From: Escherichia coli
GTDB lineage: Bacteria > Pseudomonadota > Gammaproteobacteria > Enterobacterales > Enterobacteriaceae
Direction: 5' to 3' (one strand)
Length of the DNA: 64,000 bases
Assembly (NCBI RefSeq): GCF_003790525.1
Contig: NZ_CP033635.1
Shown here: positions 16,328 to 19,042 of the stretch, piece after piece
Layout: every line of letters begins with the position of its first letter
Position numbering within the stretch: position 1 is the stretch's first letter
Program-made: the position numbers and the translations under genes
Notes under the pieces: generated by a model
What the model saw: the letters and a program-made list of their open reading frames with translations, nothing else
Database searches by the model: none
Told to the model about the DNA's origin: nothing

Positions 16328-16876
16328 TCACTGAGCTGTAATCAATGTACAGCGCTGTACCGGGCGATGGGTAATACCGGTCACAACCGGTAACCCCAGA
16401 GACAATGCAACTGTTTTTAACGCAATATACTGGCCGGATGTATCACCCCGGGCAGCCTGAAAACACCTTTCCACCCGGCATTGTCCGTCAGCACTTATCA
16501 CCCGCCATGTCTGTTGCAATAAATCCACCCGTTGCGAACATTCTTCATCAACCGTGGCACTGACCCGTGGATGGCAAATGCTCGTCTGGCTGAGCAGCAA
16601 CAGGCATCGCATTGTTGCTCCTCCATGTTGTTCCCGCAACCAGCGTAATACCACCGGTGGTGCTGGACTGGCCGTGTGATTACGTTCAGTAATACGCTCG
16701 TGCACCTGTCGGTAAAAGGAAGTACAGAATGCATGAATCTGTTGTCCGTTGATGTTTCCTTCTGCCGAATGGAGTGTGAAGTGGACGGCCAGCAGACGCG
16801 GCCAGTGATCCACCGCCTGCTGAATAAAACGCCGGATTTCCACCGGCTCTGAAAGTACGGTTTCGGTTATTTGCAC
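16328..16876 (-). CDS. YagK/YfjJ-family (inovirus Gp2-like) protein, divergent paralog 3
   Basis: Shares the family layout with the two paralogs upstream (WPRLLAVHFTLHSAEG vs SLIRVDLRFPEY; VLRWLREQHGGATMRCLLLL vs LRYFWCREFGKEKGRKHYHVILLL). Start tentatively at GTG 16874-16876 (GGGGA 8 nt upstream), which removes the 46-nt overlap with alpA implied by the 16328-17122 track ORF. Confidence 0.45.
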   Translation of the reverse strand: MQITETVLSEPVEIRRFIQQAVDHWPRLLAVHFTLHSAEGNINGQQIHAFCTSFYRQVHERITERNHTASPAPPVVLRWLREQHGGATMRCLLLLSQTSICHPRVSATVDEECSQRVDLLQQTWRVISADGQCRVERCFQAARGDTSGQYIALKTVALSLGLPVVTGITHRPVQRCTLITAQ

Positions 16877-17076
16877 GATTTGATCCCCTTGAATGTTGCT
16901 GAACCGGTGTCGGTACGCAGGAAAGCACGCCGAGACCGGTACGATGCCTGTTACAGCGAAGAACGAGGAATGACAGACGGGGGCAGCAGGTCGCCAGCAC
17001 CAGGGACAGGGCTGATTTCCACAATACCAACGCTGGTATTTTGCACATTGCCAGCGTACCGGCATTACAACACGTT

Positions 17077-17313
17077 TCATGCTGCTGCCCCTCGTGATGC
17101 CTCGATTCGTTGCTGCATCCACTGCTCCACTTCACTTTTGTACCAGCGGCTGCTGCGCCCCAGTTTGATGGGTTTAGGGAAATGGCCTTCACTGATCAGC
17201 TTGTAAAACCATTTGTCGGTCATACCAGTGAAGCTGGTGATGTAGTTCATGTCGATCAGGGGATCGTCGGCACGCAGCAATACGCTGTCGTGACCTGTCA
17301 TTGAGGTCAACAT
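17077..17313 (-). CDS. alpA: AlpA-family prophage/island transcriptional regulator
   Basis: Small ORF with the AlpA-type HTH (FTGMTDKWFYKLISEGHFPKPIKLGRSSRWYKSEVEQWM). Confidence 0.7.
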   Translation of the reverse strand: MLTSMTGHDSVLLRADDPLIDMNYITSFTGMTDKWFYKLISEGHFPKPIKLGRSSRWYKSEVEQWMQQRIEASRGAAA

Positions 17314-17381
17314 GGTCAGAATGTCCTCTGTGAGATTTATGAATGTTGGGCAAATGCGGGTGAATCTGCTGAGCTGAGCTT

Positions 17382-17954
17382 TCAGAGCTGGCCTGCTACG
17401 GGATACCAGGGATTACCGGCGAGGTAACGGGCTTCCGGATCGCGCACACCACGACGATCGCGGGCGAAATCACTGAACGCCCATATCAGCTCTTTGAGTC
17501 TCTCTTCGCAGTCCGGTGAACAACTGTCCAGCACCACATCCCGGGTTATCTGTTTCTGGTACGGTGCTGCTTCACCCGGTGACGCGAAGCCCAGTACGTT
17601 GCTCCAGGCATCCAGAATCAACCGGTCCAGCTCAGGGCCGTCGAAATATTCCTGTCTGACGCACAGCACCACGTGGTATTCCGGTTTTTCAGGATGACGT
17701 GTCAGGAGCCAGCAGAGGTCGCGTCCGGGGGTTGCATTCATCAGCGCACTGACGGTTTCGATAAAGGCCATACCGAACCAGGTTTTTCTGTCGCTGAAGA
17801 TGTTGCCATGTTCCCCCGGCAGACGAAGCAGGATCCGCCGTATTCGGGAGCAGGACTGCTCGCGCAACACACGGTTGAGAACGCCGATGATTTTGTTCTG
17901 ATAAGATGGCCAGAAGGGCGCCATGCTATAGTCGAAATAAGGGATAGCATTCAT
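17382..17954 (-). CDS. YagK/YfjJ-family (inovirus Gp2-like) protein, paralog 2
   Basis: Start placed at MNAIPYFDYS...; contains RRILLRLPGEHG and PEKPEYHVVLCV (HUH-like motif), paralleling paralog 1. Confidence 0.6.
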   Translation of the reverse strand: MNAIPYFDYSMAPFWPSYQNKIIGVLNRVLREQSCSRIRRILLRLPGEHGNIFSDRKTWFGMAFIETVSALMNATPGRDLCWLLTRHPEKPEYHVVLCVRQEYFDGPELDRLILDAWSNVLGFASPGEAAPYQKQITRDVVLDSCSPDCEERLKELIWAFSDFARDRRGVRDPEARYLAGNPWYPVAGQL

Positions 17955-18310
17955 AAGATATGTTCCGTTATACGCAGCCCACAACGCGTCCTGCCCGTGG
18001 ATGCGCTGACGTGTTATGGCTTGCGTATGGGGTTGATGGAATAAGTGAAAAACCGCGGCAGAACGGGAAGATCAGGTAACCGACAAGGGACAGAACACCG
18101 GATGCAGGTTCAGAATGAATGCTCTCCGTTGACTTCGGTTCACATCATTAAGCAGGACAGTAAGGTTTTACCGACGGAGTGTTTCCAGGAGCGAAAGCAG
18201 AGAAAAATACCGTTGCATGACTTCAGGACGACTTTTTCAGAAAACGAGCTAAGGGCGTCAGCCAACGTCCTGTAGCATAAGCTCAGACACCGGATGTCGT
18301 TTTACAGGGC

Positions 18311-19042
18311 TCACCTGCCATCCAGCAGACGCCCCGGCCCACGACTGCAACCATAATTACGTTGCCCGGAACCGTCATGCTGCTTCGTCTCATATTTCAC
18401 GAGATAACTGGCTCTGTTCCGGGCTTTCTGCAGCGCTTCCACATCACCACGCTTGATCCAGAGAACAGCGGCTTCACCCGGCTTTTTTTCTGAAGCCTTC
18501 CTGGTATCAGAACATCCACCCGACAAAGGCGTATCATCGGAAGAAGGGCGAGCATCAGATGATGTCGGTTTACGGAAAGGCGTCCGCCTGGAAAAATGAA
18601 CCAGTCCATTACCCTGCCAGGGCTCAAGATGCAGAGCACTACACCATGCCAGCTTGATCAGTGTCGCCAGCGAAGAAGGAACGGTGAAATCCCCTGGCGA
18701 GCACCAGGTATCTTTGTTGAGCAGTAATATCACGTGATAATGTTTCCTGCCTTTTTCCTTGCCAAACTCCCGACACCAGAAATAACGCAGAGTGGTTGCA
18801 CGCACACGCTTGTTGGCACGTCGTTTATGTCGCTGGTAAGCCTGAATTTTTGCTTTCAGGGATGCAAAAAAACGAGAAATCACCGCTGAATCTAAATCGG
18901 TATCCATGATGGTGGCAGGCATATACTCAGGGAAACGTAAATCCACCCGGATTAACGAGACGGCACGGTGCTGCGCCAGGGCACTGTTGAGAATACTTTC
19001 AAAACGGGATAACCAGTAAGCATTGTGTATTGGTTGATTCAT
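18311..19042 (-). CDS. YagK/YfjJ-family (inovirus Gp2-like replication-initiator-type) protein, paralog 1
   Basis: 243-aa ORF with LIRVDLRFPEY and GRKHYHVILLLN motifs, as in the CP4 prophage proteins YfjJ/YagK. Confidence 0.7.
   Translation of the reverse strand: MNQPIHNAYWLSRFESILNSALAQHRAVSLIRVDLRFPEYMPATIMDTDLDSAVISRFFASLKAKIQAYQRHKRRANKRVRATTLRYFWCREFGKEKGRKHYHVILLLNKDTWCSPGDFTVPSSLATLIKLAWCSALHLEPWQGNGLVHFSRRTPFRKPTSSDARPSSDDTPLSGGCSDTRKASEKKPGEAAVLWIKRGDVEALQKARNRASYLVKYETKQHDGSGQRNYGCSRGPGRLLDGR

Follow-up and report, generated by a model that had tools for sequence, protein, structure and literature searches.

An alpA-associated module of YagK/YfjJ-type proteins, one with catalytic-type residues and two without them, in a CP4-like island of Escherichia coli

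What are three diverged YagK/YfjJ-type open reading frames (ORFs) doing around an alpA gene, on a stretch of Escherichia coli DNA that carries no integrase? The question is raised by a 64,000-nucleotide (nt) stretch of contig NZ_CP033635.1 (assembly GCF_003790525.1), which in its full length is referred to here as the window. ORF C, ORF B, alpA and ORF A all lie on its minus strand, at the coordinates given by a preliminary description made from the sequence alone (Table 1). That description took the three ORFs to be paralogs that share an N-terminal block and an HUH-like block, noted that ORF A has lost its His pair through neofunctionalisation or decay, and likened the module to the regulatory or replication end of a CP4/P4-like element that had been rearranged or whose integration module lies elsewhere. 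We find that A, B and C are very old, diverged copies of one Rep-like gene, of which C has kept the catalytic-type residues and B and A have lost them, and that this set recurs around alpA in other genera.

Table 1. Positions of the module and associated features in the window.
Feature	Position	Strand	Description or basis
ORF C	18311-19042	minus	243 amino acids (aa); canonical YagK/YfjJ ('inovirus Gp2 family') protein, predicted HUH-type and Rep-like
ORF B	17382-17954	minus	190 aa (RefSeq start); 'hypothetical protein' WP_000991602.1; divergent YagK/YfjJ paralog
alpA	17077-17313	minus	78 aa; AlpA/Vis-type helix-turn-helix regulator or excisionase-like protein
ORF A	16328-16876	minus	182 aa (RefSeq start); WP_001167455.1; PF27752 'UCP030791'; divergent YagK/YfjJ paralog
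Small Cys-rich ORF, conserved 5' part	16991-17080	minus	DNA alignment of four copies and translations
Leader copy 1, ~65 nt	19043-19105	minus	directly upstream of the ATG of C
Leader copy 2, ~65 nt	18100-18165	minus	~150 nt upstream of B
Deletion junction, ~4.9 kb	18193-18278		blastn of the window onto L012 (8027-12931) and annotation of L011 and L012
ProQ/FinO-family pseudogene, frameshifted	15802-16310	plus	Pfam PF04352 on 16008-16310; RefSeq annotation of identical DNA
CP4-like conserved backbone	22527-29469	plus	annotation of near-identical DNA in L001 and L002 and coordinate mapping

ORF C falls in PF11726, together with YfjJ and YagK, as an ordinary member. It scored 125.4 bits against this Pfam family (gathering threshold 25.8 bits) and aligned over its full length with YfjJ (30% identity, E value 1e-26) and YagK (29%, 5e-25). 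It also passed PF23343, REP_ORF2-G2P (40.8 bits against a threshold of 27.8), and matched four PHROG replication-initiation families around the HUH strand, matches that place it in a family related to rolling-circle Rep proteins. Its motifs are LIRVDLRFP (residues 30-38), HYHVILLL (101-108) and SYLVKYETK (212-220). The HUH motif is present, with H101 and H103 kept in at least 90% of C-family sequences, and all full-length members have the YLxK Tyr (Y213, within RASYLVKYETK). The ratio of nonsynonymous to synonymous substitution rates (dN/dS), computed here and below against three diverged copies with dS of 0.15-0.47, was 0.29. E. coli C-type proteins carry an insert of ~40 aa (residues ~152-191; window 18466-18589) that is of low complexity, rich in Ser, Pro and Asp, and not seen in relatives from other genera. 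In many 214-aa variants found in databases the reading shifts, inside this insert, into an overlapping frame (ORF 18397-18639).

ORF B is far more diverged. It reached 11.5 bits against PF11726 (E = 0.29), under the gathering threshold, and was assigned to no family in any of the libraries searched (Pfam, NCBIfam, PHROGs and PADLOC). An exhaustive search with HMMER through 1.8 billion representative proteins returned a narrow family, mostly from E. coli, with two full-length outliers, P0317 from Pseudocitrobacter (36% identity, E = 4e-15) and P0321, mainly from Citrobacter (E = 2e-8). P0317 passes PF11726 unaided with 41.8 bits and so stands between B and the family proper. ORF B itself has no HUH motif, since its first His is gone (E92-Y93-H94), and it has Phe (F163) at the position of the catalytic Tyr. 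The same state holds across the B clade, which reads E, C or F followed by Y-H at the HUH position and F or M at the Tyr position. Its dN/dS is 0.10-0.20. An alternative start, a TTG at 17984, would give a protein of 200 aa, and an AlphaFold2 model of B, with a predicted local distance difference test (pLDDT) score of 40, was unusable.

The Pfam scan gave no match between ORF A and PF11726, and NCBIfam, PHROGs and PADLOC returned nothing significant for it. A precomputed assignment places ORF A, with its relatives from E. coli, in PF27752, 'UCP030791', a recent Pfam entry that RefSeq calls 'UCP030791 family putative phage-derived protein', and RefSeq names A inconsistently as hypothetical, YagK/YfjJ domain, inovirus Gp2 or UCP030791 proteins. 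The loss of the His pair is real: residues 89-91 read M-R-C and the HUH motif is absent. At this position members of the A clade read MRC, CKM, CRM or CGM, with one Citrobacter member (LHG) keeping a single His, and the His-less state is common to the A-type proteins of Klebsiella and Pseudocitrobacter. The Tyr region of A could not be aligned reliably; Y150 lies on a helix predicted at 146-160 of the model and is absent from the Klebsiella A-like proteins. Links to PF11726 run through A-like genes of Klebsiella, Citrobacter and Raoultella, which were found by tblastn against plasmids and are annotated "inovirus-type Gp2 protein". By BLASTP, ORF A matches the Klebsiella proteins Ka_204 (E = 3e-18) and Kp_down (2.7e-10), Kp_down matches Kp_up, a bona fide PF11726 protein at 155 bits (6e-7), and a Citrobacter A-like protein matches ORF C directly (4e-6). 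The dN/dS of ORF A is 0.22-0.48. The plasmid copy of A in comparison locus L008 is a frameshifted pseudogene and was left out.

A longer version of ORF A was also considered. The 264-aa version reaching 17122 is an artefact of an in-frame region upstream, and we rejected the idea that a 250- or 264-aa protein is a genuine zinc-ribbon fusion; the extension has no Pfam match, the interval contains indels in other copies that are not multiples of three, and the Cys-rich ORF within it stops there after 37 codons.

Pairwise alignment of the three proteins, which the preliminary description had proposed as a check, gave marginal results by BLASTP (E = 0.027 and 0.063, and no match for the third pair), and homology was established through intermediates and profiles instead. 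With shallow alignments drawn from E. coli alone hhalign was weak (76% for B against C, 18% for A against C and nothing for A against B), and it worked only after the alignments had been enriched with sequences from other genera. The enriched profiles aligned collinearly over ~110 columns, with a probability of 93% and E = 3.3e-7 for A against C and 97.8% and 6.7e-13 for B against C, while reversed or column-shuffled C profiles gave E values of 0.007-0.9. The direct relation of A to B was non-significant, its E value of 0.007 equalling the best shuffled control. In an alignment of 11 sequences the blocks RVDLRFP, LRYxW and HYHVILLLN and the AW helix were all in register, which bears out both the paralogy and the shared N-terminal and HUH-like blocks noticed in the preliminary description. 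Judging from the intermediates and the profile alignments, A and B are remote homologues of the PF11726 domain, and they are not filed as members because they fall under the gathering threshold.

The divergence of A and B does not look like decay. Each belongs to a protein cluster with hundreds to thousands of full-length member sequences of identical length, and both are under purifying selection, with dN/dS spanning 0.10-0.48 for the two together. Because the losses are clade-wide and selection on both genes is purifying, we regard them as conserved pseudo-enzymes and not as decaying genes. Of the two fates that the preliminary description had offered for ORF A, decay is contradicted by its dN/dS, which also provides the coding signature of a real gene, and long-standing functional divergence is preferred on account of that ratio, the His-less state across genera and the protein's own Pfam entry. 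The description was right about the His pair of A and missed the degeneracy of B, which has lost its first His and its Tyr.

The genes between and around these ORFs are arranged compactly. AlpA matches Pfam PF05930 (2e-10) and PHROG excisionase or regulator families, and its dN/dS is 0-0.10. B and alpA are separated by 68 nt, and the stop codon of alpA overlaps (ATGA) the ATG of the small Cys-rich ORF. In the other copies (L010 6633-6735, L011 6738-6840 and L012 6850-6950) this ORF encodes 37 aa (MKRVVMPVRWQCAKCQRWYCGNQPCPWCWRH…) with a CxxC-x9-CxxC mini zinc ribbon, and its first ~90-100 nt are nearly invariant across four diverged copies. The window copy has a C15Y change, and through a deletion it runs on in frame into the sequence that precedes ORF A. 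Full genes with DUF7828 and Zn_ribbon_11 domains adjoin alpA in two other genera; in Klebsiella they stand between alpA and the A-like gene, and in Citrobacter upstream of alpA.

A leader sequence (…CGGTAAA..TTACCG…TTAATGATGTG…TCAACGGAGA…) precedes both ORF C and ORF B. It matched twice in the window, against 0 matches expected, and occurs also in comparison loci L001, L002, L010, L011 and L012; it corresponds to no Rfam family and showed no unusual RNA fold. The two copies may be a shared promoter or operator, and copy 2 is likely the promoter or operator region of a B-alpA-A unit.

How far is this set of genes peculiar to the window? Positions 15500-19500 are 100% identical to several other strains, part of 16200-19100 is present in 2857 of 5426 complete E. 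coli genomes, more than half, and at least 80% of the module is found in 290. In other genera the gene order is largely kept. A Citrobacter contig reads Zn-ribbon, alpA, C-like, B-like and A-like gene and, like the window, has this block divergent from a GTPase gene; a Pseudocitrobacter contig reads alpA, HAH-type paralog, B-like, A-like and DUF2913 gene; and Klebsiella plasmids read C-like, alpA, two Zn-ribbon genes, A-like and DUF2913 gene. Every B-type gene that we found is followed by an A-type gene. The three-paralog set is an old module kept together and not a local oddity. The DUF2913 gene stands directly after the A-like gene in Klebsiella and Pseudocitrobacter (L006 4629-5234; L013 6244-6852 and 8010-8621), and the corresponding slot in E. 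coli is taken by a ProQ/FinO or an ECs1377-family gene.

Fuller E. coli copies of the module exist in L011 and L012, where the order is C-type gene, insertion sequence (IS) fragment, yfjI (DUF3987), a 188-aa HAH-type paralog, B, alpA, the small ORF, A and then a ProQ/FinO or ECs1377-family gene. Relative to these the window lacks ~4.9 kb between B and C, a stretch comprising yfjI, an IS110 fragment and the 188-aa paralog, the fourth of its kind, which reads H-A-H at the HUH position and YLAK at the Tyr position. This gives substance to the rearrangement that had been suspected from the lack of an integrase. Because yfjI and the fourth, motif-intact paralog have been lost, the module in this copy appears to be crippled.

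Where, then, is the integration module? The window contains no tRNA (transfer RNA) or tmRNA (transfer-messenger RNA) gene and nothing homologous to IntA, IntF, the island integrase described below or YfjI, the last searched for by tblastn, in agreement with the earlier remark that no integrase or tRNA target is present. The module lies in a mosaic pathogenicity island rich in IS elements, with aerobactin genes (iuc/iutA), a YadA-like adhesin and IS debris. The right end of the island is at ~29469 and ynjB begins at 29689, the island being situated between ynjA and ynjB. The chromosome of another strain, DG341-1, matches the window at 99.9% identity over 1-19914 and 98.7% over 19954-39446, and it served to look past the left edge of the window. 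Its island of ~90 kb runs from the DUF4942 gene beside ynjB to a P4-type integrase beside ynjA (395 aa, 36% identity to IntA, E = 6e-92; NZ_CM144243.1 762411-763598, equivalent to L009 12412-13599). The integration module thus does lie elsewhere, ~77 kb from alpA and past the window's left edge, as had been supposed. The same check, which the preliminary description had recommended for an integrase or a tRNA, recovered the former and not the latter, there being no tRNA or tmRNA gene at the integrase end of the DG341-1 island. The ynjA and ynjB junctions share only a short, imperfect CTTAAGGAG-like core (CTTAAGGAGGG and CCTAAGGAGAG), located at the stop codon of ynjA and the ribosome-binding site of ynjB, and an exact-repeat search for an att core between the two junctions gave only a 10-mer, compatible with chance.

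The likeness to CP4/P4 elements extends to the neighbourhood. Alongside the AlpA module and the P4-type integrase at one end, there is a conserved backbone, comparable with that of CP4-57, in the order YeeP-type GTPase, DUF905, DUF932, antirestriction gene, RadC/JAB, DUF987, YeeU/CbtA toxin-antitoxin pair, DUF957 and DUF4942, transcribed divergently from the alpA module, and the earlier assignment to a CP4/P4-like element holds on these grounds. A YfjI-type gene, whose DUF3987 domain we take to be primase/helicase-like, was not found in the alpA module of the window. The non-tRNA insertion site and the missing yfjI aside, both the module and its surroundings are of the usual CP4-like type.

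Several further observations concern the surroundings. The ProQ/FinO pseudogene is convergent with ORF A and forms the edge of the module, with IS1 and other IS debris beyond it. A 17-nt inverted repeat at 16318-16358, 88% complementary and with a 7-nt loop, covers the ORF A stop codon and the 17-nt gap to this pseudogene, and may act as a terminator in both directions. Two convergent, overlapping orphan genes, 20686-21474 on the plus and 21471-22424 on the minus strand, separate the alpA module from the GTPase backbone, in an AT-rich stretch (GC 37-41%); they keep this position in L001, L002 and L010 and had no match in Pfam or PADLOC. A second, fragmentary A-like pseudogene (L003 11472-11726; NZ_CM144243.1 713471-713725; 73% identity over 89 aa) sits in the same island, flanked by IS fragments and sodC, which suggests that two or more CP4-like elements contributed to the island.

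On balance, and with moderate confidence, we favour the view that 16328-19105 is the regulatory and DNA-processing module of an IS-ridden CP4/P4-like island, in which C nicks DNA and B and A are non-catalytic partners. ORF C would be a candidate strand-specific nickase that sets off replication or transfer once the island has been excised. For ORFs B and A, which keep the N-terminal two thirds of the fold, a role as DNA-binding or regulatory partners would be most likely. B, alpA, the small Cys-rich ORF and A would be expressed as one unit from the conserved leader, and AlpA may act at a distance on the P4-type integrase ~77 kb away. A number of observations weigh against this view. The HUH assignment is based on motif similarity and modest profile matches, no PDB relative of the C-family profile was found at an E value of 1 or below, and literature searches found no experimentally characterised PF11726 member. 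The low-complexity insert of ORF C sits between the core sheet and the Tyr helix, and the C-terminal third of A and B, which would contain that helix, is not confidently aligned to C. A search around the module for an origin-like hairpin or iteron set returned only weak two-copy repeats. Finally, many E. coli copies keep A, alpA and B and have no C or a frameshifted one, so B and A cannot strictly depend on this C.

Three other explanations deserve consideration alongside this one. It is unlikely that the module serves transfer and not replication, with C a small Rep-like relaxase that nicks an oriT, B and A accessory relaxosome-like DNA-binding proteins, and the excised island mobilised as single-stranded DNA by a co-resident conjugative plasmid. 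The neighbouring backbone, with its antirestriction, DUF932 and RadC genes, and the ProQ/FinO gene beside A have what we take to be a likeness to the leading region of a conjugative plasmid; elsewhere the island also carries ssb and another ProQ/FinO gene, and the module also occurs on large Klebsiella plasmids. Against transfer, C matched no oriT or relaxase family, its Pfam and PHROG matches being replication initiators only, and the yfjI of the fuller modules, presumably primase/helicase-like, points to replication. We are more doubtful that the entire family, C included, is non-enzymatic, a Rep-like fold co-opted as a DNA-binding transcription or partition factor with the His and Tyr residues as structural relics. 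B and A evidently function without catalytic residues, to judge from their dN/dS, many strains have no intact C, and no biochemical study of the family turned up in literature searches; all this would fit. In the C-type family, however, at least 90% of sequences from across genera keep the H-x-H pair and the YLxK Tyr, as does the separate 188-aa HAH clade, the pattern expected of catalytic residues.

It is very improbable that A and B are chance ORFs or pseudogenes in decay, with an accidental similarity to YagK/YfjJ. Such a reading could draw on the Pfam and NCBIfam scans without significant matches, the marginal pairwise BLASTP, a direct A-B similarity no better than the best shuffled control and the existence of frameshifted copies. 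It is largely refuted by dN/dS values of 0.1-0.5, by the hundreds to thousands of full-length cluster members, by intermediates that are significant database-wide and hhalign E values of 3.3e-7 and 6.7e-13 against 0.007 or more in controls, and by the gene order kept in other genera. Returning to the nickase-and-partners view that we favour, one extension of it is speculative and, as a complete picture, rather improbable: the C-type protein, its two pseudo-enzyme paralogs, AlpA and the small zinc-ribbon protein could form a dedicated heteromeric nucleoprotein machine, in which the nicking, replication or transfer of CP4-like islands across the Enterobacteriaceae would owe its site specificity or switch control to the dead paralogs. 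If true, HUH enzymes would have an architecture not described before.

What is gained is at the level of annotation, modest and no surprise to specialists. Two of the module's four genes are annotated "hypothetical", and the module occurs inside virulence islands with aerobactin, Sit, Iha and adhesins. ORF B now has a family assignment, PF27752 is linked through sequence comparison to PF11726, and a catalytic-type protein accompanied by two dead paralogs emerges as a set that recurs. Placing B and A in the YagK/YfjJ superfamily gives testable hypotheses on how CP4-like islands are processed after AlpA-triggered excision, and their conservation without catalytic residues and constant pairing add to these.

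The closest known counterparts are YfjJ of CP4-57 and YagK of CP4-6 in strain K-12 (PF11726, YagK_YfjJ_C; RefSeq 'inovirus Gp2 family protein'), which share with C the RVDL, HYH and YLxK..TK motifs and differ from it in having no 40-aa insert. Like yfjJ, ORF C sits in an alpA-containing module of an island with a P4-type integrase. K-12 has one copy per island, in the order alpA-yfjI-yfjJ and on the same strand as the yfjP backbone, whereas the window has three paralogs, two of them without catalytic residues, no yfjI, and a module divergent from the GTPase backbone. The HUH Rep proteins of filamentous phages have the same motif order as C, with motif 1 followed by HUH and then Tyr. C is much smaller and lies in an integrative island with no single-stranded DNA phage genes nearby, and B and A are missing the motifs that define the superfamily. 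PF27752, to which ORF A belongs by precomputed assignment, stands in the database as a separate family of unknown function and becomes here a His-pair-less branch related to PF11726. The arrangement itself has precedents. In the tmRNA-integrated Pseudomonas islands I23, I44 and I55, alpA lies beside an 'inovirus Gp2' gene, far from the integrase (doi 10.1101/2024.08.29.610337), and in the Shigella SRL island an alpA and 'inovirus Gp2' pair is found within orf39-orf41 in the interior, just upstream of the yeeP/Ag43 backbone (PMC6980539). Both reports describe one Gp2-like core gene without an assigned function and do not describe inactive paralogs such as those reported here. An alpA/Rep-like module far from the integrase is therefore normal for CP4-like islands and no sign of a missing element.

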